This document shows positions 1 through 14,813 of a stretch of 64,000 nt of DNA, piece after piece. The notes under the pieces were generated by a model. It searched no databases and was not told the DNA's origin. It was given only the letters and a program-made list of their open reading frames with translations. This DNA comes from Planctomycetota bacterium (GTDB lineage: Bacteria; Planctomycetota; UBA8742; UBA2392), in NCBI GenBank assembly GCA_020848275.1, contig JADLAK010000012.1:37301-101300 (forward strand), written 5' to 3'. The position numbers were made by a program, and so were the translations under genes. Every line of letters starts with the position of its first letter. The stretch's first letter is position 1.

Positions 1-1050
1 CGCGAGATCCAGGGCAAGGAGCCGTTGATCCAGGTGGAAGTGACGCCGGAGGTGATCGCGCGCGTGATCTCGGACTGGACCGGCGTGCCGATCGGCAAGA
101 TGGTGCAGGACGAAGCCAGCGCGCTGCTCAGCTTCGAAAGCACCATCGGCAAGCGCATCAAGGGGCAAGACCACGCCCTGCAAATCGTGGGCAAGGGCGT
201 TCGTGCCGCAAAGTCAGGTTTAAAAAATCCGCGTACCCCGATGGATGTCTTTCTTTTCGTGGGTCCCTCCGGCGTCGGCAAGACCGAAACCGCGCTGGGT
301 GTCGCCGACCTGCTGTTTGGCGGCGAGCGCTACATGACGACCATCAACATGTCGGAATTCCAGGAGAAGCACACCGTTAGCCGCCTGATCGGCTCGCCCC
401 CGGGCTACGTCGGTTACGGCGAGGGCGGCATGCTGACAGAGGCCGTGCGCCAGCGGCCGTATTCGGTGGTTTTGCTGGACGAGGTTGAAAAGGCCGACCC
501 GGAAGTGCTCAACCTGTTCTATCAGGTCTTTGACAAGGGCACGCTCAACGACGGCGAAGGCCGCGAAGTGGATTTCAAAGACACCGTGATCTTCCTGACC
601 AGCAACCTTGCGACGGATCTAATCACGCAGGCGGGCAGCGGCGGGCAAAAGCCCGCGCTCGACGATTTAATCGGCCTGATTCGTCCCGCGCTCAGCAAGC
701 ACTTCAAGCCGGCGCTGCTGGCGCGCATGACGATTGTGCCGTTCTATCCCATCGACCAGGACGCAATGAAGGACATCACGCGCCTCAAGCTGGGCCTGCT
801 GCAGAACCGCCTGAAGGAAAGCCACAAGATGACGCTCTCCTTCGACGACAAGGTCGTCGAGGCGATTGCGGCTCGCTGCACGGAGGTCGAGACCGGCGCG
901 CGCAACGTCGACCACATCCTTGCGGGCACACTGCTGCCGAAGATTTCAACCGAGCTGCTTGAACAGATGAGCAAAGGCCCGCTGCCGGAGAAACTCACGG
1001 TTGGGCTCGATGGCTCGGGGGACTTCAGCTTCACGTTCGGCAAAAAGTAA
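1..1050 (+). CDS. clpV: ClpB-family AAA+ ATPase, C-terminal part (second AAA+ domain plus C-terminal domain), truncated at the window start. Most likely T6SS ClpV/TssH given the vgrG gene that follows.
   Basis: The reading frame is open from base 1. Walker A GPSGVGKTE is present, as is the ClpB D2 signature (sensor and arginine-finger region) VVLLDEVEKADPEVLNLFYQVFDKGTLNDGEGREVDFKDTVIFLTSNL. The stop is at 1048-1050. Confidence 0.8.
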   Translation, partial: REIQGKEPLIQVEVTPEVIARVISDWTGVPIGKMVQDEASALLSFESTIGKRIKGQDHALQIVGKGVRAAKSGLKNPRTPMDVFLFVGPSGVGKTETALGVADLLFGGERYMTTINMSEFQEKHTVSRLIGSPPGYVGYGEGGMLTEAVRQRPYSVVLLDEVEKADPEVLNLFYQVFDKGTLNDGEGREVDFKDTVIFLTSNLATDLITQAGSGGQKPALDDLIGLIRPALSKHFKPALLARMTIVPFYPIDQDAMKDITRLKLGLLQNRLKESHKMTLSFDDKVVEAIAARCTEVETGARNVDHILAGTLLPKISTELLEQMSKGPLPEKLTVGLDGSGDFSFTFGKK

Positions 1051-1251
1051 CTTCTGTAAAGCGTTGTCCACGGAAGACACGGAGAAAAGCAACTGCGCCT
1101 CACGCAAAGGCGCTAAGACGCAAAGCGACTTATTTTTCCTGGCGCCTTTGCGCCTTGGCGTGAGATAGCTTTTGCCGTTTTCCGTGCCTTCCGTGTTCTC
1201 CGTAGAAAAAGCTGTGGTTTTGCTTGGGCCGTTTGTCGAGGGAGCGCAACT

Positions 1252-3750
1252 ATGGCTGAAAGTGCGATCAACAAACGCGTGATGTCCTTCAGCTCCGGCG
1301 CAGTTGCCGATGACTCGCTGCTGCTTACCAAGCTGGCGGGCTCTGAGGAACTTTCGCGGCTCTACAGCTACGAGCTTGAGCTGATCTCCGACAAAGTCGA
1401 CCTCGACTTCGACAAACTGCTCAAGGAACCCGCAAAGGTCGGCATCAAGCAGGGCGTCAAGCTCGCGGGCGAAAACCGCCGCGGCGCGCAGACACTCAAG
1501 ATCCACGGCATGCTCTCGAAATTCGAACAGATCGAACGCCGGCTCGACCTCGTGCGCTACAAGGCCACCCTGGTGCCGCGGTTGTGGAAACTCGGCCTGA
1601 CTTACGAAAGCCGCGTCTTCCAGGACAAGACGGTCAAGGAAATCATCGCCGACGTGATGAAAGAGGCGGGTTTCACCACCGACGATTACGAAATCAAGGC
1701 CGGCAACGGCTACGCCAAGCGCGAGTTTGTCGTCCAGTACGAGGAAACCGACCTCGATTTCCTTTACCGCTGGCTCGAGCACGAGGGCATTTTCTTCTTC
1801 TTCGACAACAGCGGCGAGAAGGACAAGATCATCTTCGGCGACGCCGTCGGCCACTACCCGCGCATCCAGGGCAACTCGAATATTCCCTATCGCCCGACGG
1901 CCGACAACAACGCCCGGAGCGAGGGCGCGGAGTCCGAAAGCGCGTCGACGGACTGGTTCAAGGAAGAAGTCATCAACTTGTTTTCCTGCCGCCAGAGCGT
2001 GATTCCCAGGGAGGTCGTGCTGAAGGATTACAACTACCGCAAGCCGTCGGAAACGCTGCGCGTGGTCACGCAGGTAAGCCAGAACGGCGTCGGCCGCGTC
2101 TACGAATACAACAACCACTACAAGACCGAAGACGAGGGCAAGGCGCTTGGCAACATCCGCGCCCAGGAAATCGTGTGTCGCGAGAAAATCTTCAGCGGCG
2201 CTTCCGACTGCCGGGCGTTTCGCGGCGGCGCGACCTTTGAACTGCAGGAGCACTACCGCAACGATTACAACCGCGAGTACCTGATTACCCACGTCTCGCA
2301 TAACGCCGAACAGTCGATCCAGTTCAGCAGCGGCAACACCCTGGGCGCCTCCTACAACAATGCGTTTGTCTGCATCCCCTCGGACAGGCTCTTCCGGCCC
2401 GAGCGCACCACCAAATGGCCCGCCATCCACGGCATCATCAACGCGACCGTCGACGCCGCAGGCAGCGGCGACTACGCCGAAATCGACGACCAGGGCCGCT
2501 ACAAGGTCAAGTTGCCCTTTGACCTCTCGGACAAGAAGGATGGCAAGGCCTCGCGCTATCTTCGCATGGCCCAGCCGTATTCGGGTGAGGGTATGGGCAT
2601 GCACTTCCCGCTGCACAAGGGCACGGAAGTCCTCGTCACCTGCGTGGACGGCGACCCCGACCGCATGGTGATTTCGGCGTCGATCCCCAACCCGGAGACC
2701 GAAAGCCCTGTTACATCAGACAACCAGACGCAGAGCCAGATCCAGACCGGCGGCGGCAATGTGATCACGATGGAGGACCAGGACGGCAGCCAGCACGTGA
2801 CCATCGAGTCGCCTACACAGGGCACGGTGATTCGCATCGGCTCCAATTCCGGCGAAGAAGGGGAGGGCAGCGCCGGCGAGGGAGTGCATATCGCGACCGA
2901 CGGCGACCACACGCAGGAAACCGGCGGCGACGAGAACAAGACCATCGAAGGCGACGAAACCACGATCATTGAGGGCGACAAGGAAGAAACCATCAAGGGC
3001 AACAAGGAGGAGTCCGTCGACGGCCACGTCAAGGAGTTCATCGACAAGGGCACCGAAGCCTACAACATGGGTAATTTCTCCGAGTACATCCTTGGCATGA
3101 ACTCTTCAACGGTGCTTGGCATGGAGGCCTCGACGGTTGCGCCGCTCAAGCGCGACGGCGTCTACGGCATTTCCATGGAGTCCGTCCTGGGCATGACGGT
3201 TGAGACTTTCAAAGGCCTCAAGCTGTCCCACGAAAAAGGCATCTCGTTTGAAGTCTCGGACGTCAAGAAGTACGAGTTCGAGGCCCACCACGGCAAGAAA
3301 GTGCCCGGCATCTTCGCAACGATCGCCGGCATCGGCAAATACATCTACAACCGCCACAAGCTGATGTCGCAGGCCAGCACGCAGATTGCCGCCGCTGCGG
3401 CGCTGCAAGTTGAGGCCGGCAACATGGAAATGTCGGCGCTTCGGGCCGAGGCCATTTTTGGTTCGGACCACACGGACTGCACCGAGATGCGCCAGCGCGC
3501 CCAGCAACTCACGCAGGAAGCGACACTGTGGGAAGCCAAAGCGGCGGCGACCAAGATTTCGGCCCTCAACATCGACATTGGCGCAGGCGCCTTCACTATC
3601 GTCGGCGGCGGCGCTCCGCCGGTGGTGCCGCCCGCGGTGCCCAAGGTTGCCGCGGCTTCTGTCGCTGCCGAAAGCGCGGCTGCTGTCGCCGAAAACGCTG
3701 CGGCGGAGGCTGCTGCCAACGTCGCAAGCGCCGCAGCACCCAGCCAGTAA
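1252..3750 (+). CDS. vgrG: T6SS spike protein VgrG (TssI), 832 aa. It has a gp5-like C-terminal beta-helix repeat region and a further Ala-rich C-terminal extension of about 250 aa.
   Basis: N-terminal gp27-like VgrG signature (SFSSGAVADDSLLLTKLAGSEELSRLYSYELELIS). The central part is typical of VgrG. Octapeptide-like repeats GDETTIIEGDKEETIKGNKEES are present. The RBS is GAGGGA and the gene sits directly downstream of clpV. Confidence 0.85.
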   Translation: MAESAINKRVMSFSSGAVADDSLLLTKLAGSEELSRLYSYELELISDKVDLDFDKLLKEPAKVGIKQGVKLAGENRRGAQTLKIHGMLSKFEQIERRLDLVRYKATLVPRLWKLGLTYESRVFQDKTVKEIIADVMKEAGFTTDDYEIKAGNGYAKREFVVQYEETDLDFLYRWLEHEGIFFFFDNSGEKDKIIFGDAVGHYPRIQGNSNIPYRPTADNNARSEGAESESASTDWFKEEVINLFSCRQSVIPREVVLKDYNYRKPSETLRVVTQVSQNGVGRVYEYNNHYKTEDEGKALGNIRAQEIVCREKIFSGASDCRAFRGGATFELQEHYRNDYNREYLITHVSHNAEQSIQFSSGNTLGASYNNAFVCIPSDRLFRPERTTKWPAIHGIINATVDAAGSGDYAEIDDQGRYKVKLPFDLSDKKDGKASRYLRMAQPYSGEGMGMHFPLHKGTEVLVTCVDGDPDRMVISASIPNPETESPVTSDNQTQSQIQTGGGNVITMEDQDGSQHVTIESPTQGTVIRIGSNSGEEGEGSAGEGVHIATDGDHTQETGGDENKTIEGDETTIIEGDKEETIKGNKEESVDGHVKEFIDKGTEAYNMGNFSEYILGMNSSTVLGMEASTVAPLKRDGVYGISMESVLGMTVETFKGLKLSHEKGISFEVSDVKKYEFEAHHGKKVPGIFATIAGIGKYIYNRHKLMSQASTQIAAAAALQVEAGNMEMSALRAEAIFGSDHTDCTEMRQRAQQLTQEATLWEAKAAATKISALNIDIGAGAFTIVGGGAPPVVPPAVPKVAAASVAAESAAAVAENAAAEAAANVASAAAPSQ

Positions 3751-3767
3751 CCAGACACTGGAGCAGA

Positions 3768-6170
3768 ATGCAGATTGTGCTCGACAATTGCTTGCGTGTC
3801 GGCTGGACGGTGGGCAAATGGGCGCCGCCGCAACTGGCAGCGGCGTTTTTCGTCAAGGGCACTTTCAACCTGCTTCACGGCAAGACGGCTACGCCCTCCG
3901 ACAAGCCCGAGATCGTGTGCGGCGACGTGGCCGCGACGCAGGCCGAGCAAAGCAGCCTGCGCTATGCGTCGGATTTCGCGCCCATGAAAGTGAGAGCCGA
4001 TGTGCTGGTGGCTGGCACGGCGTACACGCCCGAGGGCAAACCCGCCACAGCGGTGCGCGCGGGGTTCGGCCTCGGCCCCGCCGACAAAAAGAGCATCCTT
4101 GAAAAGCGCCTGACGATCACTGGCCCGCGCGTCTGGAACAAAGGCCTCCTCACCAGCAAACCCGGCGAGCCGCAACCTTTTTTGAGCCTGCCGCTGATTT
4201 ACGAAAACGCATTTGGCGGGGCGGGCGTACCGACCAACCCCGTGGGCAAGGGCGTGGGCGACCTGATGCCGCAAATTGAGCTTGAGGGCGCGCCGGTGTT
4301 GTCGCCGCGCGACAAACACGCGCCCGCGGGTTTTGCGCCGCTGCACCCGACGTGGCATCCGCGCAACCACAAGCTTGGCCATTATGATGGCGCGTGGCTG
4401 AAGGAACGCTGGCCGTGGCTACCCAAGGATTTCAACTGGGAACATTTTAATGCCGCGCCGCGCGATCAGCAGGTTGACGGCTATCTGCGCGGCGATGAGA
4501 CGATTTATTTCCAGAACATGCACAAGCAGCACGCGCATTACTCCAGCGCGCTGCCGGGGCTGCGCGTGCGCCTGTTCGTGCAGGACAGGCACAAGGACGC
4601 ATCGCGCTTTCGCGAGGTGCCGGTCAAACTCGACACGTTGTGGGCCGACATGGACGCCGAAAAGCTCGTGCTGGTCTGGCGCGGGCAGGCGGAAGTCCAA
4701 ACGCTGAAGGCCCGGGAACTCGAGTACGTCTTTGCAGTCGTCGAGCCCTTGGCCGAAACGCCAAAGCCGATGTCGTACTGGCAAGCCGAACTCGCCCGCC
4801 GCATGGCACAGCCGGCGCCGCCCGCGCCCGAGGTCAAGGAACGCGAGAAGGACCCGACGCCGACGGTCGGCGCGCTGATGCAGGAGATGGACCCCTTGAT
4901 GACCGAGATGCACAAGCAGGAAGCGGTGATGGATGCGCACCTCGCCAACAACATCAAACAGCTTCAGGCCCGCAACCTGCCGACGACGGGGATGTCGACC
5001 AAGCCGCCGTACGGCCCGCAATCGCTGGCCGAAGTCCCGGCGTTCCTCAAGCAGATGGAAACGCTGGCCAACGCCAACCAGGCGGCGCATCTGGCGCAGC
5101 TTGCATCCAGCGGCAAAGCCGCCGCGTTCAAGTTGCCCGCCGAGATGACGCAGCCCATCCGCATCGAGCTTCCGCCCGAGCTCGCCAAGGCCGCGCAGAT
5201 TCAGCAGCAGGCAGGCAGGGTTCCGGCCGCTGCACCGCCGCAGCCCGACGACAACATCTGGACGCGCGAACGCGTGCTGGCCCACGCCAAGGCGGGCAAA
5301 CCCTTTGCGCGCGTGCGGCTGGGCGCCGTCGATCTTTCGGGCGTTGATCTTTCCGGCGCGAATCTGGCCTTTGTGCGCCTGAACAACGTCAAGCTCGCGG
5401 GCGCCAACCTTAGCGGCGCTGATATGACGGGCGCGGAGTGCGGCGCCGGCAACTTCGCGGGCGCGAAGCTGGTGCGCTGCAACCTGCACGGCGCGACGTT
5501 CACCGGCGCGGTACTTGCAGGCGCGGACCTCAGCGAGGCGCGGCTGGACGACACCAACTTCGTGAAGGCCGACCTTGCCAAGGCGAAACTCGCGGGCGCG
5601 CGCGGCTACGGCACGTATCTCGCCGAGGCCAACCTGGCGGAGATCAATGGCGCGGGTGTGAACATCGAGGGCGGCAACTTCACGGGCGCGATGGCCGAGA
5701 AAGCAAACTTCAAGGGCTCGAGGCTGATCGGTTGCGGCTTCATGCAGGCCAACGCCAAGGGCGCGGATTTTTCCGGCAGCGACCTGGCCAACTTCCGCGG
5801 CCAGAGGGGCAACTTCGAAGAAACGAAGTTCGCGCGCTGCAAGCTCGGCAATTCGGCCTGGACCGAGGCGAACCTCAAGCGCGCCGATTTCACGCACGCC
5901 GACCTGCCCAATTCGCTGTTTGATTTCGTTGTGCTGGAGGGCGCGTTGCTGGGCGCTGCCGACGCGACAGCCAGCAACTTCGCCGATTCGAACCTGAAGG
6001 CCGCGAAATTCGCCGTCGCCAACGGCATGCGCTGCAGCTTTGACCGCAGCGATCTTTCGCTGGTCGATTTCCAGGGCGCGAACCTTTATTGCGCCGAATT
6101 CTGGGACGCCGTGACCGTCGGCGCGGATTTCCGCAACGCCAATGTCGCCCGGACAACACTCTCGAAATGA
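3768..6170 (+). CDS. DUF2169-like N-terminal domain fused to a long pentapeptide-repeat (A(D/N)LxG) C-terminal domain. Candidate T6SS adaptor/cargo.
   Basis: The ATG at 3768 lies 17 nt after the vgrG stop. Roughly the first 480 aa are non-repetitive. About residues 520-800 are continuous pentapeptide repeats (ANLAFVRLNNVKLAGANLSGADMTGAEC...). The known vgrG-DUF2169-PRP-DUF3540-DUF4150 context supports the call. Confidence 0.6.
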   Translation: MQIVLDNCLRVGWTVGKWAPPQLAAAFFVKGTFNLLHGKTATPSDKPEIVCGDVAATQAEQSSLRYASDFAPMKVRADVLVAGTAYTPEGKPATAVRAGFGLGPADKKSILEKRLTITGPRVWNKGLLTSKPGEPQPFLSLPLIYENAFGGAGVPTNPVGKGVGDLMPQIELEGAPVLSPRDKHAPAGFAPLHPTWHPRNHKLGHYDGAWLKERWPWLPKDFNWEHFNAAPRDQQVDGYLRGDETIYFQNMHKQHAHYSSALPGLRVRLFVQDRHKDASRFREVPVKLDTLWADMDAEKLVLVWRGQAEVQTLKARELEYVFAVVEPLAETPKPMSYWQAELARRMAQPAPPAPEVKEREKDPTPTVGALMQEMDPLMTEMHKQEAVMDAHLANNIKQLQARNLPTTGMSTKPPYGPQSLAEVPAFLKQMETLANANQAAHLAQLASSGKAAAFKLPAEMTQPIRIELPPELAKAAQIQQQAGRVPAAAPPQPDDNIWTRERVLAHAKAGKPFARVRLGAVDLSGVDLSGANLAFVRLNNVKLAGANLSGADMTGAECGAGNFAGAKLVRCNLHGATFTGAVLAGADLSEARLDDTNFVKADLAKAKLAGARGYGTYLAEANLAEINGAGVNIEGGNFTGAMAEKANFKGSRLIGCGFMQANAKGADFSGSDLANFRGQRGNFEETKFARCKLGNSAWTEANLKRADFTHADLPNSLFDFVVLEGALLGAADATASNFADSNLKAAKFAVANGMRCSFDRSDLSLVDFQGANLYCAEFWDAVTVGADFRNANVARTTLSK

Positions 6171-8215
6171 CCGCCCTCGACCCCAGATTCGCAGCAGCCG
6201 CCAAGGGCAAGCCCGGTGCGCCCATTGGCGGCGACGAATTCCTCGCCGCGCTGGCAAAGGGCGAAAGCGTCGAGGCGCGGCAGTTGATCGGCGTTTCAAT
6301 GCAGGGCGCGGACCTGCGCGGCCGCAACCTTAGCGGTTGCATGATCGACAACGTTGATTTCAGCGGCGCGAATCTTGCTGGCGCAAACCTCAGCGACTGC
6401 ATGCTGACGCTGTGCAAGCTCGGCAACGCCAATCTTTCGGGCGCAAATCTCAAGGACGTGTTGTGGGCGCAATGTGAATTCAACGGCGCGAATATCGAGG
6501 GCGCGACGCTCGACAAGTCGCTCTGGGCGGAATGCAAGGGAGTGAACCTGCGCGCGCGCGGCGCCAAGGGCCCGGCGCGCATGGCCCAGTGTGAATTTCC
6601 CGACGCGGATTTTACGGGCGCGAGTTTTGACGGCATGGTCGTGGTCAAAAGCACGTTTACCGGCGCAAAGTGCGGCGGCGCGAGTTTCATCGACGCATGG
6701 CTGCCGGATTGCGCCTGGGCCGGGTCAGATTTCACCGGCGCCGATTTGTCGAAGGCCAGCTTCGAGGGCGGCGACATGGCGGGCGCAAAGTTTGAGAACG
6801 CCAACCTGAACTGGACCGTGCTTTCCTACTGCAACCTGGAGAAAGCGTCGTTCCAGGGCGCGAAGTTCGTGCGCTCCCAGTTGGACAACTGCAAGCTCGC
6901 GGGCGCAACCGGCTGGCCAAAATTGATCGAGAACATCGATTTCGAGGACGCCGACCTCGCGGGCCAGGCATTCAAGGAAATCGAGTTCAACCGCTGCAAT
7001 TTCAGCGGCGGCAAACTCGGCAAGATCGACTTCAGCGGCGCGCGCGTGTTGTCCTCGAATTTCAACAAGGCCGACCTGAAACAGGCTAACTTTGAAGGCG
7101 CATCGCTCGAGACCTGCCGCTTCGGCGAGGCCGACCTGACCGGCGCAAACCTTAGAAAAGCCAAGCTGCCCGGCTCGCGCCTGCGCAGCGCGCAACTTGC
7201 GGAAGCCGTGTACACCGGCGCGTCCTTTTGGGGCGCCGACGTCAGCCTTGCGCACTTCAACCCCCGTTCGTTGATTGCGGGCGCGATCGACGGCGCGCGC
7301 TTTGAAGGCGCAAATTTCGATGGCGTCGATTTCTCCGGCCGCAATCTGACCAACACCGCGTTCATCAAGTGCTCGCTGGTCGGCGCAAAGTTCGCCAACG
7401 CGCAGCTCACCAGCGCCAATTTCTCCGGCAGTGACCTCTCGGGCGCGGATCTTTCGGGCACGCGCAACGAGGCCGCGGGTTTTGAGAAGAGCAAACTCGT
7501 CAACGCGGATTTCAGCGGAGCGGTCATGTCCAGCGCGTTCTTTGCCGAGGCGCAACTTCAGGGTGCGAAATTCCACGGCACGCGCATGGAACGCACGACG
7601 CTGAAGGATTCGACCTTTGCGCAGGCGAGTGTCGAAAGGGCCTCGCTGCGCCAGTGCAACCTGCAGGGGCTGAATTTTGCCAGGCGCAGTTTTGCGGGCT
7701 GCGACTTTTCCGGCTCGGATTTCAGCGGCAGTGAGATGTCGGGCGTCGACCTTTCCGGCTGCGCGCTCGAAAACGCTTCGTTCAACGCAACCATCCTAAA
7801 AGACGCGAAGTTCCGCGATGTCATCGGCAAGACAATCAAGTTCGCCGATGCACAGCTTGGCGGCGCAAGCTTCGAGAACGCGCAGATCAGCGGCTCGTTC
7901 TTTGCCGGCGCATATGCGCAGAAATGCAACTTCACCGGCGCTGACCTGCGCATGTGCATCTTCGAAAAGGCCGACCTGCGCAACAGCCGCCTCGCCAACG
8001 CGCGCCTCAATTACGCCGACCTCAGCTACGCGCACCTCGACCTCAGCGATTTTTCCGGAGCCGACGTGCAGGGCGCGAATCTGCACGGCGTCGGCGAGCA
8101 GGGCACGATCTGGCGCAACGCCAACACCAGGGGTGCGCGCCGCAGCGACGACGAACGCCTGAAAGCGGACGCTTTCAAGCCGCCAAGGCCCAAGGTTACG
8201 GGAGACAAGGTATGA
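6167..8215 (+). CDS. Pentapeptide repeat protein of about 682 aa. Nearly the whole length consists of A(D/N)LxG repeats.
   Basis: The start codon overlaps the upstream stop (ATGA at 6167-6170). There are more than 100 consecutive pentapeptide units (GADLRGRNLSGCMIDNVDFSGANLAGANLSD...). Confidence 0.8.
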   Translation: MTALDPRFAAAAKGKPGAPIGGDEFLAALAKGESVEARQLIGVSMQGADLRGRNLSGCMIDNVDFSGANLAGANLSDCMLTLCKLGNANLSGANLKDVLWAQCEFNGANIEGATLDKSLWAECKGVNLRARGAKGPARMAQCEFPDADFTGASFDGMVVVKSTFTGAKCGGASFIDAWLPDCAWAGSDFTGADLSKASFEGGDMAGAKFENANLNWTVLSYCNLEKASFQGAKFVRSQLDNCKLAGATGWPKLIENIDFEDADLAGQAFKEIEFNRCNFSGGKLGKIDFSGARVLSSNFNKADLKQANFEGASLETCRFGEADLTGANLRKAKLPGSRLRSAQLAEAVYTGASFWGADVSLAHFNPRSLIAGAIDGARFEGANFDGVDFSGRNLTNTAFIKCSLVGAKFANAQLTSANFSGSDLSGADLSGTRNEAAGFEKSKLVNADFSGAVMSSAFFAEAQLQGAKFHGTRMERTTLKDSTFAQASVERASLRQCNLQGLNFARRSFAGCDFSGSDFSGSEMSGVDLSGCALENASFNATILKDAKFRDVIGKTIKFADAQLGGASFENAQISGSFFAGAYAQKCNFTGADLRMCIFEKADLRNSRLANARLNYADLSYAHLDLSDFSGADVQGANLHGVGEQGTIWRNANTRGARRSDDERLKADAFKPPRPKVTGDKV

Positions 8216-8739
8216 GCGACAACATTGGCATCGAACTCGGCACGTTGCTTACGCAGGCCCGCGTACTCGACGTTGAAGGCCGCGCGCTGAAGCTCCAGGC
8301 CGGCGAGCGCATCATCGCCGCAAATCTGGCGCTGCCTTACCCGTACAAGCCGCAAGTGGGCGACACGGTACTGGTGATTGCGCAGGGTGAAAGCGCCTGG
8401 GTGATCGGCGTGATCGAGGGAACGGGCCTGACCGCGTTTTCCGCGCCCGCGAACCTTGAGCTGCGCGCAACCCGCGGCCGCATCGTGCTCAATGCGCGTG
8501 ATGAAATCGAAATCAAGGCGCGCGACGTCAACATCAACGCCGACAACGCGAGCACGTTTGCGAAAAACCTGACCCAACAGGTCGAGAACCTTGACACCAG
8601 TGTCGCGGGGCTGGCGCTATTGCGTGCACGCGAAGAACGCACCGAGATCGAGCAAAGCAGCATCCTGCGCGCGGAAAACATCAACCAGCGCGCGCGCAAA
8701 GAAGTGAAAATCGACGGCGAGATCATCAACCTCGGTTAG
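8212..8739 (+). CDS. DUF3540-like protein, 175 aa (T6SS VgrG-module accessory).
   Basis: ATGA overlap with the upstream PRP stop (8212-8215). Size and position match the DUF3540 member of DUF2169-PRP-DUF3540-DUF4150 modules. No other recognisable motifs. Confidence 0.45.
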
Positions 8740-8748
8740 GAGAACCTA

Positions 8749-9171
8749 ATGGCTGGATTTCCTGTAGCGGTGGGAGGGCCGGGCCAGGCGATGTCCACGG
8801 GCCCGACCGACGTCTGCAAAGTGCCGGCGCCGCCCGCGCCGCCGATCCCGACGCCGTTTCCCAACATCGTGATGCTTGCGATGGTGAACCCGACATCGTG
8901 CAGTCCCAAGGTCAAGATCGAATACCTGCCGGTGCTGGTGGTCGGCAGCGAAATACCGATGTCCAACGGCGACGAAGCCGGCGTCGCCGGCGGCGTCGTC
9001 TCGAGCAAGTTCATTGGCGCCTGCAAGCCCACGTTGGGCTCGATGAAAGTAATGATCGGCGGCAAACCTGTCGTCTACATGACGTGCCTGACCATGCACA
9101 ACGGCATGCCCGCCAACACCGTCGGCCAAGTCCTCGTCGCGGGACAGGTCCGCGTCATGGTCATGGGGTAA
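8749..9171 (+). CDS. PAAR-like (DUF4150-like) small spike-tip protein, 140 aa, with no C-terminal toxin domain.
   Basis: Strong RBS AGGAGA 7 nt upstream. The sequence is Gly/Val-rich and PAAR-like ([21 protein letters not shown]...[23 protein letters not shown]). It is the last gene of the vgrG module. Confidence 0.5.
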
Positions 9172-9173
9172 AC

Positions 9174-11111
9174 ATGGTTCCGGTCAAAGCCCATATCGCC
9201 GCAAAGGCGCACATCCGCAGCCTCGCCGAGTACCAGCAGCTTTATCGCGAATCCGTCGACAACCCCGCCGCGTTCTGGCGCAAACAGGCCGAGCACATCA
9301 CGTGGTTTTCGCCGCCGCAGAGCATCGTCGATATCGACCGCGATGAAATCGACTTTGCCTGGTTCGCCGAGGGCAAACTCAACGCCTGCTTTAACTGCGT
9401 CGACCGCCACGCCCGCGCCACGCCCGACAAAACCGCGATCATCTGGGCCAAGGACGAACCCGGCCAGTACGAGCGCATCAGCTTTCTTCAGCTCAAACAC
9501 GACGTGGCGCGCATCGCCAACGTGCTGATCGCCCACGGCGTCAAGCGCGGCGACCGCGTCTGCATTTACTCGCCGATGATGCCGCTGACCGCCGCGGCGA
9601 TGCTGGCCTGCGCGCGCATCGGCGCCGTACACTCGGTCGTGTTTGCCGGATTTTCCGCGGAAAGCCTGCGCGACCGCATCCTCGACGCGGGCTGCAAGGT
9701 CGTGATCACCGCCAATGAAGGTCTGCGCGGCGGCAAGAAGATTCCTTTGAAAGCAACGGTCGATGAAGCCTGCAAAGGCCTTGAGATCGTGCAGACTGTG
9801 CTGGTCGGCCGCCGCACGGATGCCGGCGTCCCGATGCAGAAGGGCCGCGACCTTTGGCTCGACGAGGAAATGGCGCGCCAGCGTTCGACTTGCCCCGTCG
9901 AGTGGATGGACGCGGAATCGCCGCTGTTCGTGCTCTACACCTCGGGCAGCACCGGCAAGCCCAAGGGCGTGCTGCACACCACGGGCGGCTACCTGGTCTA
10001 CGCGGCTACCACGCACAAATACGTCTTCGACGCGCACCCGCACGACATTCACTTCTGCGCCGCCGACGTGGGCTGGGTGACGGGCCACAGTTACATCGTC
10101 TACGGACCGCTGGCCAACGGCATCACGACCGTGATGTTCGAGAGCACGCCGGTCTATCCCGACGCCGGGCGCTACTGGCAGACGGTCGACGACCTGCAGG
10201 CCACGATTTTCTACACCGCGCCGACGGCGCTGCGCGCCATTGCGCGCGCGGGCGACGAACACGTCAAGAAGGCCAGGCGCACGAGCCTGCGCGTGCTGGG
10301 CTCTGTCGGCGAACCGATTAATCCGGAAGTCTGGAAGTGGTACCACGACGTCGTCGGCGATGGCCGCTGCGCACTCGTGGACACATGGTGGCAGACGGAA
10401 ACCGGCGGCATTTTAATTTCGCCGCTGCCCGGTGCGACGCCATGCAAACCGGGTTCGGCGACGCTGCCGTTTTTTGGCGTGCAGCCCGTGATCGTCGACA
10501 ACGACGGCAAGGAACTCACGGGCAATCCCGTGTCGGGCAATCTTTGTTTGAATGGCTCTTGGCCGGGACAAGCCCGAACCATCTACGGGGATCATGCCCG
10601 GTTTAAACAAACCTATTTCAGCGCATTTAAAAGCCTCTACTTCACGGGCGACGGCTGCAAGCGCGACGAAGACGGCTACTACTGGATCACCGGCCGCGTC
10701 GACGACGTCATCAACGTCGCGGGCCACCGTCTGGGCACCGCCGAAATCGAATCGGCGCTGGTCGCCCACCCCGCCGTCGCCGAAGCTGCTGTTGTCGGCT
10801 TCCCGCACGATATTAAAGGCACGGGCATCTACGCCTACGTGCAGATTACGGCCGAGTACGCAAAAAAACCTGCGGCCGAAGTCCAGAAACTGCTCGCCGA
10901 TCAGGTGCGCAAGGCGATCGGCGCGATCGCCACACCCGACCGCATCCAGATCGTGCCGGGGCTGCCAAAGACGCGCTCGGGCAAGATCATGCGCCGCATC
11001 CTGCGCAAAGTTGCGGCGGGCGAATACACCGAACTCGGCGACCTGACGACGCTCGCCGACCCCGGCGTCGTCGAAAAAATCGTCGAAGAACACAAACGGC
11101 AAAAAACTTAA
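9174..11111 (+). CDS. acs: Acetyl-CoA synthetase (AMP-forming).
   Basis: [15 protein letters not shown]-binding motif. Acs-specific N-terminus ([16 protein letters not shown]). C-terminal conserved Lys in [11 protein letters not shown]. Confidence 0.9.
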
Positions 11112-11112
11112 C

Positions 11113-11175
11113 CACGAATGAACACGAATCTTCACGAATTGAATGCCGTATTCGCGTCTATTCGTGGAATTCGTG
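11113..11175. promoter_or_regulatory. Symmetric array of heptamer half-sites. Three CACGAAT at 10-bp spacing (11113, 11123, 11133) face three ATTCG(T/C)G (11150, 11160, 11169). Candidate operator and/or acs terminator hairpin.
   Basis: Read directly from the sequence: ccacgaatgaacacgaatcttcacgaattgaatgccgtattcgcgtctattcgtggaattcgtgg. Confidence 0.4.
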
Positions 11176-11192
11176 GCTAAAAAAGGACCGGC

Positions 11193-11621
11193 ATGAACAC
11201 CTACGACATTCACCTCGATCTGAAATACAAGCCGCTGGAGGTGTGCGACGCGGGCAAGATCGCCGACAACTGCGGCAAGGATTGGTGGAACCAGTCGCTG
11301 GTGAACGTGAACGAGAGCGTGATTCGCGTCGGCGTGTTCCTTGGCGAATTTCACTGGCACAAACACGACCGCGAAGACGAATTCTTCTGGGTGATCGACG
11401 GCTTGCTGCTGCTCGACCTCGAAACCGAAGAGGGTGACCCGTTTGGCAGCCACAAACTCAAGCCGGGTGAATCGCCCAAGCCCGGGAAGTTCCGCACCGT
11501 CGAGCTGTCGCCGCGCCAGGGCCTGATGGTGCCCAAGGGTGTGGTGCACCGCACCCGCGCCAAAGTTCGCACCACTGTGTTGATGGTCGAACCCGCCACC
11601 GTAAAACCGACAGGGGACTAG
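11193..11621 (+). CDS. Small cupin-domain protein, 142 aa.
   Basis: Cupin_2-like two-His motifs (FHWHKHDREDEFFWVIDG ... PKGVVHRT). Confidence 0.55.
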   Translation: MNTYDIHLDLKYKPLEVCDAGKIADNCGKDWWNQSLVNVNESVIRVGVFLGEFHWHKHDREDEFFWVIDGLLLLDLETEEGDPFGSHKLKPGESPKPGKFRTVELSPRQGLMVPKGVVHRTRAKVRTTVLMVEPATVKPTGD

Positions 11622-11706
11622 CGTAACTATTGATTTCAGAAGCTTTTGCGGCGTCGTGCCGTGTCATGGTGAAAGCATCGAGAAATTACGTCTATTCTTC
11701 CGATGG

Positions 11707-11734
11707 TTGACTGGAGGGTTGAAGGCCATATACT
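11707..11734 (+). promoter_or_regulatory. Sigma70-like promoter (TTGACT-N16-TATACT) upstream of the ImmA-like gene, inside the low-GC islet.
   Basis: TTGACT at 11707-11712 and TATACT at 11729-11734. An AGAAGGG RBS precedes the ATG at 11790. Confidence 0.35.
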
Positions 11735-11789
11735 TTCGCGCCACAATAGTTGGCAGTTGGGTAGGCGCCGGACAGAAGGGTGTAAAACC

Positions 11790-12212
11790 ATGTTGAATGC
11801 AGTCGATGTTCATGAAATTTGTGATCAGCACAATATCGACGTTCAAGAAATTGAATTAGGCGAATGTGCAGGATTCATTTCCTGCACGTCTGATAAGTGG
11901 GTCATTTCGGTAAACAAGGGTGATCCGCTAGTTCGACGTCGTTTCACAATAGCGCACGAATTGGGACATTTTTTTCTCCACTTAAGTCGGGGCTCGGTTC
12001 GAATTGATCGACCGCTCCATCGAAGCATTAATGCGTCGAACTCCGCGCAGGAGCGAGAGGCAAATGCATTTGCTGCAGCTTTGTTGATGCCCGCCAATGT
12101 CTTGCAAGCTGCTGTGAATGAAGGAAAGCCGACAAACGTCTTGGCGAGGGAGTTGTTGGTTTCCGCGTCTGCGCTGAGTTGGAGGCTTCAAGACCTTGGC
12201 CTGAAGAAGTGA
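11790..12212 (+). CDS. ImmA/IrrE-family (DUF955, COG2856) zinc metallopeptidase, about 140 aa.
   Basis: HEXXH motif HELGHFFLH followed by ...EREANAFAAALLMP, typical of ImmA/IrrE. It lies in a lower-GC segment. Confidence 0.7.
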   Translation: MLNAVDVHEICDQHNIDVQEIELGECAGFISCTSDKWVISVNKGDPLVRRRFTIAHELGHFFLHLSRGSVRIDRPLHRSINASNSAQEREANAFAAALLMPANVLQAAVNEGKPTNVLARELLVSASALSWRLQDLGLKK

Positions 12213-12254
12213 TATCTGACAAACGGCCAAATACGCAGTGCCGCCAGAAGTCGT

Positions 12255-14639
12255 TTGTGGCGGCACTTTTTATTGGGTTTGCCAATGCTTGATCAAGAAT
12301 TGATTCGCGGCGTCGAGGCAATCTCAGATTCGTCCAACGAAGCTGAGGTCGAAGACAAGGTCGTTCTCCCTCTTCTGAAACGATTTGGGATAACGGCGAA
12401 TGACTTCATTCCGCAAGGCGAAATTCCGCGACTAGATATCGCCAAGGGAGTGGAAGTCAAGAGAGCTTTTCTTCCGGACTACCTGCTGACTTTTTTCGGG
12501 CTCTATGTTGCAGTGATTGAGGCGAAGTCTCCCAGCGAGTCGGTGCAAAATGCATATAGAGAGGCGTGTTTCTATTCAACCGAACTTCACCGTCAACTTG
12601 GCACATTAACAGATGTCAAGGTTGCCGTGGGCTGCAACGGTCGCGAAATTTGGGTAGGAACTCCTGAAACTTCCGACAAGGACGCCAAGAAATACGATGT
12701 CCGCAAATTGGTATCTAGCCCCACACTTCTGGCCGAACTCGAGGCGTGGATTGGCCGAAAAACATTAAATGACCATGCCAACGAGCGAAGACTGGCACGT
12801 CGCCTTGGGGAGGCTTCAAACGTTAGGACCGACCTCTTTCTTGGTGCGGCCATTCCCAAGAATGAGCACAACTCGTTCTATCCGGCCATTCGACCGTTGC
12901 TGAATACATATTTTGGCAATCTAAGCCTCCTGCGCGATGAGCTGTTCCTAAAGGGGTATTGCGACCCGTCTGAACAGCAGCGAACGCGCGAAGAAGAAGA
13001 TGTTTTGCGTGATCGCCCCCCTGCCCGTTCAGACGCCAAGTTGCTCACGCGACATAACGCTGATGAGTTGGTGGGCGACATAGTTAGGCACTTTCATTCA
13101 TACCATACAGGTGAAGACACCTCCTTTGAGCCGGATCGATTCTTTCTCCTCCTCGGCGCGGCGGGTGCGGGCAAGTCCACATTTACTTGGTGGTACACGA
13201 AGTTCTCCGTCGATCACAAAAAATGTGTCCCGATATTGATTGATGGGACGAAGGCCCCTCAAGACTCGGAACCACTTTTCGCGCACACGTTGCAAAAGCT
13301 CACGAGTACGGTTCACGAATTCCTAGTTGCCAATGTTTACGGAGGTGATCGACAACGGGCTATTCGATCTATATTGCGCGAATCTTGGGAGAAGGACTAC
13401 TACGAGTTCTTTCATCCGAAGATTGAAAAGCCAGATTACTTGGATCAGCACTTTCCAAAGTTAGCAAAGCCGATAAAGGAAAGTGATGAGGTGTTTTTGC
13501 CATTTCTGCTTGAGGATCTACATCGCAACGGGCTTGTCGCCATGCTCATCGTTGACAATTTAGACCTAACCAACGTCGCAAGACAGCTAGATGGGTTTAA
13601 ACTGTTTCGGCCGTTTTCCCAACAATTCGAGGTTCTTATCGGCCTCGTCCTTCGGGACGAGACATGGCAATTTTACGCAAAACGCAAACCTTTCGAGGGA
13701 TTTCATAGCTCTCCAACTTTTTACATCGCCGGACCGTCCCTATCTGAATTGATCGACAAGCGTGTGGAAGTGATGACTGAAGGCCTAGGCCAAACTGGGA
13801 AAAGGAATGTGGTGATCCCATTCGGGGCCAACAAGAACATGAAGTTAGAGCTTTCGATGAAGGACACCGCAGAACTAATTGCAAAGGTCCATGAAGGACT
13901 CTCTAAGCCAGACGACCTGCATTTGATTGAAGGCGTCTGTGGGAAGAACAATCGCAATGGTCTAGACGCGTTTGCTGTTGTCTGTACATCTTCGTACGTC
14001 GAGGAGATCAATCTTCTTCAGCCGACTTTCAAGGTCGGAGCGTTTGACCCCTCGCGAGCGCAGCTGTTGAAAGCGCTGATTTGCGGGGATAGTAAGTACT
14101 ACGATTCACATTCGAGCTTTGTGGCGAATGCCTATACATTTGGCCAGGGAACAGACGGGTCAAGCATTTTTGTGGTACTCCACATACTTCGAGAACTGCT
14201 TTTTAAAGCCGGAGGCACTCCTGGATTCGGAAAGGGCTATGTGCCCCTTACGGACCTACAGGAGTTGTTGATGAAGTGGCTTCCGCTCGATGTTTCCGAG
14301 TTGCGTCGCATTACATTTGGAATCGTACGGACGGGGATTTGGCAAGTAGACACGTTTGAGCCAACATCCGAATCAGATTTCAATGCGGTTCGAATTCAAG
14401 AGCAGGGATTGTATCTGTTGAAGACCTTGTACAAGGATGACACGTACCTCGAATGCATGGCATTCGATACCGCAATAGCGGATCGATTCACGTTGGGAGA
14501 GTTGGTAGAGGCGTTCAAAAGCGATCGACGCTGCTCCGACCTCTTTTTGACCTACCTAAAGGGCAAAGAAGTGATTGAAGTTGAACACGCGTCAGCTAGA
14601 GGATTCAAGCTCGATCCAAGCCGAAAGAAATTCATGTAG
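12255..14639 (+). CDS. Fusion of an HsdR_N-like PD-(D/E)xK nuclease domain and a NACHT/STAND-like P-loop NTPase with a C-terminal uncharacterised domain (794 aa). Candidate defence protein. The true start may be the ATG at 12285 (MLDQ...).
   Basis: N-terminal HsdR_N-type motif (VVLPLLKRFGI...PDYLLTFFGLYVAVIEAKSP). Walker A LLLGAAGAGKST. Walker B-like hhhhD motif MLIVDNLDL (NACHT-like). Low GC. Immediately upstream of tRNA-Leu. Confidence 0.6.
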   Translation: MWRHFLLGLPMLDQELIRGVEAISDSSNEAEVEDKVVLPLLKRFGITANDFIPQGEIPRLDIAKGVEVKRAFLPDYLLTFFGLYVAVIEAKSPSESVQNAYREACFYSTELHRQLGTLTDVKVAVGCNGREIWVGTPETSDKDAKKYDVRKLVSSPTLLAELEAWIGRKTLNDHANERRLARRLGEASNVRTDLFLGAAIPKNEHNSFYPAIRPLLNTYFGNLSLLRDELFLKGYCDPSEQQRTREEEDVLRDRPPARSDAKLLTRHNADELVGDIVRHFHSYHTGEDTSFEPDRFFLLLGAAGAGKSTFTWWYTKFSVDHKKCVPILIDGTKAPQDSEPLFAHTLQKLTSTVHEFLVANVYGGDRQRAIRSILRESWEKDYYEFFHPKIEKPDYLDQHFPKLAKPIKESDEVFLPFLLEDLHRNGLVAMLIVDNLDLTNVARQLDGFKLFRPFSQQFEVLIGLVLRDETWQFYAKRKPFEGFHSSPTFYIAGPSLSELIDKRVEVMTEGLGQTGKRNVVIPFGANKNMKLELSMKDTAELIAKVHEGLSKPDDLHLIEGVCGKNNRNGLDAFAVVCTSSYVEEINLLQPTFKVGAFDPSRAQLLKALICGDSKYYDSHSSFVANAYTFGQGTDGSSIFVVLHILRELLFKAGGTPGFGKGYVPLTDLQELLMKWLPLDVSELRRITFGIVRTGIWQVDTFEPTSESDFNAVRIQEQGLYLLKTLYKDDTYLECMAFDTAIADRFTLGELVEAFKSDRRCSDLFLTYLKGKEVIEVEHASARGFKLDPSRKKFM

Positions 14640-14684
14640 GGCTCACACGCGGCTCGGAATGCGCTTTGTCGGGTCACAATCATA

Positions 14685-14768
14685 CGGACGTGGCGGAATG
14701 GCAGACGCGCCAGACTTAGGATCTGGTGAGGCAACTCGTGTGGGTTCAAGTCCCACCGTCCGTACCAT
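14685..14768 (+). tRNA. tRNA-Leu (anticodon TAG), type II with long variable arm, CCA encoded.
   Basis: Manual fold. Acceptor ACGGACG/CGTCCGT. D-arm GCG-GAATGGCAGA-CGC. Anticodon stem CCAGA/TCTGG with loop CTTAGGA. 13-nt variable arm. T-arm GTGGG-TTCAAGT-CCCAC. Discriminator A, then CCA. Closely resembles E. coli tRNA-Leu. Confidence 0.85.
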
Positions 14769-14813
14769 TCGACTCGGAAGGCGCTCGTCAGAGCGACTTC
14801 CGAGTCGAATGGT
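14766..14813 (+). terminator. 16-bp perfect inverted repeat (CCATTCGACTCGGAAG ... CTTCCGAGTCGAATGG) with a 16-nt loop, overlapping the tRNA-Leu CCA end. No U-tract follows.
   Basis: Seen directly in the sequence. Function is uncertain (terminator or processing structure). Confidence 0.3.

Follow-up and report, generated by a model that had tools for sequence, protein, structure and literature searches.

Two pentapeptide-repeat genes beside a planctomycete vgrG are probable tvpAB and tvpB homologues of a Class III type VI secretion accessory module

The operon region described here belongs to a type VI secretion system (T6SS) and lies on the plus strand of a Planctomycete metagenome-assembled genome (contig JADLAK010000012.1). 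The window, i.e. the whole stretch of DNA analysed, measures 64 kb, and the remaining T6SS cluster lies beyond its edge. The genes follow each other in the order clpV, vgrG, a gene encoding a DUF2169 domain fused to a pentapeptide-repeat domain (open reading frame A, ORF-A), a gene encoding a pentapeptide-repeat protein (PRP) without further domains (ORF-B), a DUF3540 gene (ORF-C) and a DUF4150 PAAR-like gene (Table 1). A sequence-only reading of the window had singled out two adjacent plus-strand PRP genes at 3768-8215, coordinates that correspond exactly to ORF-A and ORF-B, and their genetic linkage to VgrG and a PAAR-like tip is borne out by the layout of the operon. The end of vgrG (3750) is separated from ORF-A by a 17-nt gap, the ORF-A ATG is preceded by GGAG, and both ORF-A/ORF-B (6167-6170) and ORF-B/ORF-C (8212-8215) share 4-nt ATGA start/stop overlaps. 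ORF-A and ORF-B very probably belong to a T6SS accessory module of Class III Tvp (DUF2169 synteny type C) as its tagAB/tvpAB and tagB/tvpB genes, and the Tvp names are used below.

Table 1. Coordinates of the features discussed in the text (positions are those of the window)
Feature	Position	Strand	Description and support
clpV/tssH, 3' part	1..1050	+	AAA_2 E 1e-53, ClpB_D2-small E 7e-16 (Pfam); gene start precedes the window
vgrG/tssI	1252..3750	+	832 aa; Phage_GPD E 8e-80, Phage_base_V (Pfam)
tvpAB/tagAB homologue (ORF-A)	3768..6170	+	800 aa; DUF2169, helical linker and pentapeptide-repeat beta-helix (Pfam, BLASTP, AlphaFold)
DUF2169 domain of TvpAB	3846..4682	+	Pfam aa 27-305; structural beta domain aa 1-330
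Helical linker of TvpAB	4770..5291	+	aa 335-508; predicted helices 335-347, 367-401, 420-447, 470-482
Pentapeptide-repeat domain of TvpAB	5298..6167	+	aa 511-800; ~58 repeats, ~14.5 coils
tvpB/tagB homologue (ORF-B)	6167..8215	+	682 aa; PRP-only (PF00805)
Pentapeptide-repeat solenoid of TvpB	6299..8101	+	aa ~45-645; ~120 repeats (period-5 register scan)
Last repeats and C-terminal tail of TvpB	8018..8212	+	aa ~618-682; clade-wide motif
tvpC/tagC homologue (ORF-C)	8212..8739	+	175 aa; DUF3540, PF12059 E 9.3e-19
PAAR-like (DUF4150/PIPY) tip gene	8749..9171	+	140 aa; Tox-PAAR-like PF13665 E 6e-27
Cupin-like ORF	11193-11621		in low-GC islet
M78 peptidase	11703-12212		in low-GC islet; PADLOC capP model match 3e-26
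794-aa ORF	12255-14639		in low-GC islet; weak HSDR_N match, no PADLOC match

Class III is defined by the VgrG1-TvpAB-TvpB-TvpC-Paar1 set of Serratia marcescens Db10 (Monlezun, Earl and Coulthurst, EMBO J 2026; PMC13373197). The window module contains the same five protein types in the same order after vgrG. The first PRP gene encodes an N-terminal DUF2169 domain and a C-terminal PRP extension, a PRP-only gene lies downstream and is followed by DUF3540, an effector-less PAAR-like protein closes the module, and a long vgrG (832 aa, where 700-800 aa or more is usual) sits directly upstream. The module departs from its Serratia counterpart in the lengths of TvpB (682 vs ~353 aa) and TvpC (175 vs 201 aa), in its Planctomycete host, in the Ala/Pro-rich tail of its VgrG, and in having no Vai1-like immunity gene between vgrG and tvpAB.

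The gene order can also be compared with that of the Burkholderia T6SS-5 (pseudomallei, thailandensis and glumae). That locus reads clpV-5, vgrG-5, tagA/B-5, tagB-5, tagC-5 and finally tagD-5 in the nomenclature of Shalom 2007 (PMC6335564, PMC8747328), an order identical to that of the window, including clpV directly upstream of vgrG. TagA/B combines DUF2169 with PRP, TagB is PRP-only, TagC is a DUF3540 protein, and TagD (130 aa) is PAAR-like and devoid of an effector domain. The two systems differ in what follows, which is tssJKLM after tagD and the acetyl-CoA synthetase gene acs after the PAAR-like gene of the window, and in the sizes of their PRPs, with TagB and TagAB of B. glumae measuring 356 and 878 aa against 682 and 800 aa here. 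In addition, a membrane-fusion domain has been characterised at the C-terminus of VgrG-5, and the targets of T6SS-5 are eukaryotic cells.

A third point of comparison is the Enterobacter cloacae plasmid pIMI-6, which is annotated in a plasmid collection as tssH, tssI (761 aa), a hypothetical gene, DUF2169 (846 aa), PRP (353 aa), DUF3540 (201 aa) and DUF4150 (130 aa). Here too the place of tssH matches that of clpV/tssH in the window. All five window proteins match their pIMI-6 counterparts by BLASTP: VgrG with an E value of 3e-48, TvpAB with 3e-68 and end to end (aa 20-800 of ORF-A), TvpB with 4e-32, TvpC with 3e-8 and the PAAR-like protein with 3e-12. The TvpB match is driven by the repeats, but its N-terminal region and C-terminal tail are similar as well. 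At the level of sequence, every protein of the module thus has a homologue in the annotated enterobacterial module.

The same module recurs far beyond these examples. A single scan of GTDB species genomes, for which two conserved peptide patterns were used, found 521 loci; of the best 80, nearly all align to TvpAB from about residue 1-27 to residue 800. These best 80 span the Planctomycetota, Acidobacteriota, Myxococcota, Desulfobacterota, Verrucomicrobiota, Nitrospirota and Gemmatimonadota, the Ignavibacteria/Melioribacteraceae, as well as several groups of proteobacteria; in all, they represent more than ten major lineages. Together with two loci from the contigs of a homologue they make up the 82 related loci that were examined in a synteny script. 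The great majority show the succession VgrG, DUF2169+PRP, PRP (~600-760 aa), DUF3540 and PAAR-like, and in most of them the long vgrG lies directly upstream. With phmmer, DUF3540 was picked up in roughly one locus out of three, and many of the others have a gap of ~0.7-1 kb at the DUF3540 position. In one locus whose genes were called independently (L001) the proteins measure 762, 781, 643, 172 and 137 aa, compared to 832, 800, 682, 175 and 140 aa in the window. The five-gene module is therefore conserved in dozens of genomes from many phyla.

The distribution also bears on the fusion of DUF2169 to a PRP domain, which the sequence-only reading had taken to be unusual. Both domains are present in all 120 TvpAB homologues listed, the 521 loci point in the same direction, and the arrangement has been published: by one count, roughly 40% of the DUF2169 genes encode multidomain proteins, and those with a fused PRP bear the name 'synteny type C' (PMC11883445). 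The fusion is the rule in this class and not an oddity. The layout does vary in a number of loci (L051; L021, L025, L045; and the Myxococcota loci L067, L074, L079, L081, L082). In some Myxococcota the DUF2169-PRP gene has the PAAR-like gene upstream of it and the long PRP gene downstream at a distance of several kb, L051 contains two modules ~9 kb apart, and the Sorangium loci have an additional DUF2169 gene upstream.

Both window PRPs give a strong pentapeptide signal (PF00805, E values of 1.9e-38 for ORF-A and 7.7e-98 for ORF-B), as had been recognised from the sequence. The earlier estimate of about 1,480 aa of near-continuous repeats, however, equates repeats with protein length. The two proteins add up to 1,482 aa, of which the register scan and AlphaFold assign a combined ~870-890 aa to repeats. 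The difference lies largely in ORF-A, whose first ~500 aa are no repeat and consist of the DUF2169 domain (PF09937, E 1.3e-82, aa 27-305) and the helical linker. Structure prediction of both proteins, a step that the sequence-only reading had advised, succeeded for one of them and in part for the other. The AlphaFold2 model of TvpAB, built on an 89-sequence alignment, has a mean predicted local distance difference test score (pLDDT) of 91 and resolves the DUF2169 domain and the beta-helix; that of TvpB, predicted from the single sequence, is poor (pLDDT 59) and confident, and hence usable, at aa 40-250 only.

In the TvpAB model the beta-helix reaches a pLDDT of ~98, and a period-5 scan shows that its repeats keep one constant centre-residue register. 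The linker scores 50-78 and is poorly conserved in sequence. A Foldseek search with the modelled N-terminal domain returned 8VTH_A as its best match in the PDB (E 1.2e-20, TM score 0.83 on the target), which is the crystal structure of a DUF2169 protein from Vibrio xiamenensis (PMC11883445). The predicted N-terminal domain of TvpAB thus has the DUF2169 fold. This fold is shared with the single-domain DUF2169 chaperones Tap2/Atu3641 of A. tumefaciens, PA0097 of P. aeruginosa and VP1398 of V. parahaemolyticus (PMC11883445). Like the window TvpAB, these have a DUF4150/PIPY partner downstream of a vgrG; they differ in that they have neither a PRP extension nor a PRP-only partner, in that their PIPY protein is toxin-fused, and in their assignment to Classes I and II (synteny types B and A).

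TvpB is a solenoid for most of its length; its register slips once, near aa 123-136, and stays constant from there on. Its ~120 pentapeptides form about 30 coils, which at 4.8 Å per coil would amount to ~145 Å, twice the approximate size of the proteobacterial protein (682 aa vs 353 aa in Enterobacter and 356 aa in B. glumae). The length is a property of the clade, since in 67 related loci the equivalent position is taken by a PRP-only gene, whose product has a median length of 645 aa. The N-terminal region and the tail correspond to those of Enterobacter TvpB, so it is the middle that is expanded, by ~16 coils. A long pentapeptide-repeat region is also found in DotG/IcmE of the Legionella Dot/Icm system (TvpB PDB match E 3e-13), where it is a structural element of a secretion machine and not a DNA mimic; the secretion system (type IV) and the domain context are different, nothing but the repeat points to common descent, and the comparison goes no further than analogy.

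The tail of TvpB sets the protein apart from other PRPs. The tail proper (aa 646-682) is basic, with a net charge of +5, and the last repeats and tail together carry the motif LHxxxDxxAxWxGANxxxVxxTDxDLxxAExWxPP with the consensus core TDxDLxxAExWxPP. Residues H640, T660, D661, A667 and E668 are invariant or near-invariant in 48 TvpB orthologues from many phyla, a related tail is present in Enterobacter TvpB, and none of 120 generic PRPs listed by the protein search (P0121-P0240) contains the motif. The tail is a plausible docking peptide. The orthologues were picked by synteny, as the protein search was flooded by generic long PRPs and returned neither the sequence of the query itself nor any true orthologue. 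Such a word-indexed search seems to be saturated by repeat proteins, and a lack of matches in it is not evidence of rarity.

The remaining proteins of the module are the presumed clients and partners of the PRPs. VgrG is highly variable across the clade past ~aa 520; its match to Gp5_trimer_C falls slightly under the Pfam cut-off (28.6 vs 30.9 bits), and its last stretch (aa ~786-832) is a low-complexity tail rich in Ala and Pro, which is not present in the VgrGs of its relatives. The C-terminal 200 aa (aa ~633-832, window 3148-3747) have no match in Pfam. They were considered as a possible hidden effector domain, and are not conserved among relatives. TvpC gives a weak sub-threshold DUF2345 match in Pfam and, in an alignment of 22 related-locus orthologues with the Enterobacter protein, is shorter than the enterobacterial TvpC because it is without two inserts. 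The PAAR-like protein contains P32-I-P-T-P-F37, a variant of the P(I/V)P(Y/F) motif, and Pfam detects no effector domain and nothing past the PAAR-like domain in its 140 aa.

How such a module operates has been studied in its proteobacterial homologues. The DUF2169 proteins of Vibrio and Pseudomonas attach to the hydrophobic face of the PIPY (DUF4150) cone, and VgrG export requires them (PMC11883445). In Serratia pull-downs, Paar1 is recovered together with TvpAB and TvpB in either of two mutually exclusive complexes, one with TvpC and one with VgrG1; all components are required for Hcp secretion through the VgrG1 spike, and TvpAB and TvpB have never been detected in secretomes (PMC13373197). 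The Serratia models have TvpAB wrap the tip and TvpB close the cap like a seat belt (PMC13373197). In Burkholderia, TagA/B-5 is needed for Hcp-5 secretion (PMC6335564), and deletion of the PRP region of the fusion or of the PRP gene attenuates the T6SS-5-dependent virulence of B. glumae (PMC8747328).

By analogy with Serratia, Burkholderia and Vibrio, the DUF2169 domain of the window TvpAB would grip the hydrophobic face of the PAAR-like (PIPY) cone, and the PRP beta-helices of TvpAB and TvpB would close a protective cap, the 'seat belt', around the tip. The cap would first be assembled on a TvpC (DUF3540) trimer and then be passed on to the long VgrG inside the baseplate, and the PRPs would remain in the producer cell when the spike is fired. 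Homology thus favours a role of the window PRPs as protein-binding scaffolds or chaperones that act on the VgrG/PAAR-like tip before firing, and not as cargo. The sequence-only reading had offered, as its second option, structural adaptors that thread the spike; the structural adaptor was essentially right, while the published models show a wrapping or clamping of the tip instead of threading.

Several points weigh against a simple transfer of this scheme. Identity to the characterised proteins is just 21-28%, and the functional assignment in a Planctomycete host rests on gene content and homology. The VgrG-like fold proposed for TvpC (an OB fold and a short beta-prism) is not reproduced in sequence comparisons, as hhalign of the TvpC alignment with VgrG, run with a single sequence and with a 27-sequence alignment, was not significant (probabilities of 0.2% and 2.6%). 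No effector or immunity gene is seen in the module from vgrG to acs. Finally, at 682 aa TvpB is double the length of all its characterised counterparts (353-356 aa); the published geometry of the cap is hence not simply transferable, and a TvpB of twice the proteobacterial size implies a cap that is longer or differently arranged in this clade. It is conceivable, though we consider it rather doubtful at present, that the cap is architecturally distinct, a 'Class IIIb' of the large, mostly non-proteobacterial clade (Planctomycetota, Acidobacteriota, Myxococcota, Desulfobacterota and others) in which TvpB is consistently ~600-760 aa long and TvpC is shorter than in enterobacteria. In such a variant the TvpB solenoid may, for example, serve as a ruler or sheath for most of the VgrG beta-prism, or occupy the baseplate cavity, in place of a short 'seat belt' at the tip, with the tail motif as docking peptide. 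The length of VgrG past the OB fold does correlate with the length of TvpB (Spearman 0.40, p 0.005, n=46), but the loci are non-independent and no phylogenetic correction was applied; the correlation is weak and a lead only, as proteobacterial modules with similar VgrGs use a short TvpB.

This correlation, weak and uncorrected for phylogeny as it is, is also part of the case for a different role of the PRPs, namely as structural parts of the fired projectile that leave the cell on the VgrG/PAAR-like tip instead of being stripped off it, e.g. as a sheath by which the spike is made longer or stiffer. The final complex of Serratia contains TvpAB and TvpB, purified along with VgrG1-Paar1 (PMC13373197), the TvpB solenoid is comparable in length to the VgrG beta-prism, and the module is without a visible separate effector. 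Yet Serratia TvpAB and TvpB are reported never to have been detected in secretomes (PMC13373197); the spike would be blunted by a cap enclosing its tip; and the half-size TvpB in proteobacterial modules with VgrGs of similar length indicates that TvpB length tracks the clade and not the spike. The PRPs are thus improbable as components of the projectile.

A slightly lower probability still is attached to the possibility that the module mainly fills the baseplate cavity or regulates the loading of VgrG, with the PRP helices as bulk in place of an absent effector domain or as a gate between rival spikes. In its favour, the Serratia tvpAB deletion boosts the activity of the rival VgrG2 pathway (PMC13373197), and the window has an effector-less PAAR-like protein and no linked cargo gene. 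Against it, direct binding of PIPY by DUF2169 has been demonstrated in other systems (PMC11883445), and the window data do not bear on the baseplate because the remaining T6SS cluster is outside the window. Moreover, a cavity filler or gate overlaps with the chaperone cap instead of excluding it.

The sequence-only reading had favoured a third role, in which one or both PRPs are T6SS cargo and act as DNA mimics that bind gyrase or topoisomerase IV in the target cell, like Qnr, MfpA and AlbG. QnrB1, MfpA, AlbG, McbG and EfsQnr act on gyrase, and they share with the window PRPs a right-handed quadrilateral beta-helix of A(D/N)LXX-type repeats. MfpA, QnrB1 and AlbG are indeed among the PDB matches in sequence and fold searches, and the PRP genes have a genetic link to those for VgrG and a PAAR-like tip. 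The similarity is generic, however: in the PDB sequence search with TvpB the designed solenoids, HetL, Np275/276 and DotG all outrank MfpA (6.6e-13), QnrB1 (3e-11) and AlbG (1e-8). The size is unlike that of the gyrase-acting chains as well, which measure 180-217 aa (~180-220 aa for the class), compared to a 290-aa domain in an 800-aa protein and a solenoid of ~600 aa. The net charge per 100 aa is 0 for the TvpAB repeats, -1.3 for the TvpB repeats, -2.8 for QnrB1 (using a reference verified as 100% identical to the annotated qnrB1) and -3.4 for the accessory TvpB of Enterobacter. The repeat domain of TvpAB is neutral and the mildly acidic TvpB is not excluded by its charge; bulk charge does not discriminate DNA mimics, because the accessory Enterobacter TvpB is as acidic as QnrB1. 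A Pfam scan of TvpAB and TvpB found only DUF2169, pentapeptide-type repeats and sub-cut-off solenoid look-alikes, and no toxic domain; all genes between vgrG and the PAAR-like gene are accounted for and acs then follows, which leaves no cognate immunity gene in this interval. ORF-A in turn carries a chaperone domain, the fold-confirmed DUF2169. The sequence-only reading had itself named, as the finding that would speak against its proposal, PRPs that are not secreted and are needed for spike assembly, and this is the picture in the homologues, which are required for T6SS firing and for Hcp secretion and have not been detected as secreted (PMC13373197, PMC6335564). With nothing specific in its favour and the evidence from homologues of a known accessory module against it, a delivered gyrase-targeting effector is unsupported and, while not disproved for this organism, very improbable.

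Downstream of the module, the ATG of acs at 9174 is 2 nt past the stop of the PAAR-like gene (9171). A promoter and terminator scan of 900-11400 found nothing exceeding the shuffled expectation, and the 2-nt junction has no terminator-like site; a housekeeping gene, acs, therefore lies right against the T6SS operon, and the two may be transcribed together. Pfam gives no support for the long antisense ORFs within 3345-7576, which were taken as artefacts of the GC-rich repeat DNA. Further downstream, at 11100-14770, lies an islet of low GC content (0.49-0.53 vs ~0.62) that ends at a tRNA-Leu gene (14684-14767). Its ORFs are listed in Table 1, and it may represent a defence gene with regulation of the CapH/CapP type.

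Overall, the locus contains an ordinary, known module in an unusual host, and the clade-wide long TvpB is the sole notable variation from the characterised systems. The immediate gain is one of annotation and extends little beyond it: the genes can be named tvpAB/tagAB, tvpB/tagB and tvpC/tagC, followed by a PIPY-type PAAR-like tip, and the idea of a gyrase poison delivered by the T6SS can be set aside. The Class III module proves to be very widespread outside the Pseudomonadota, and general structural models of the spike cap should account for a double-sized TvpB and its conserved C-terminal tail motif.

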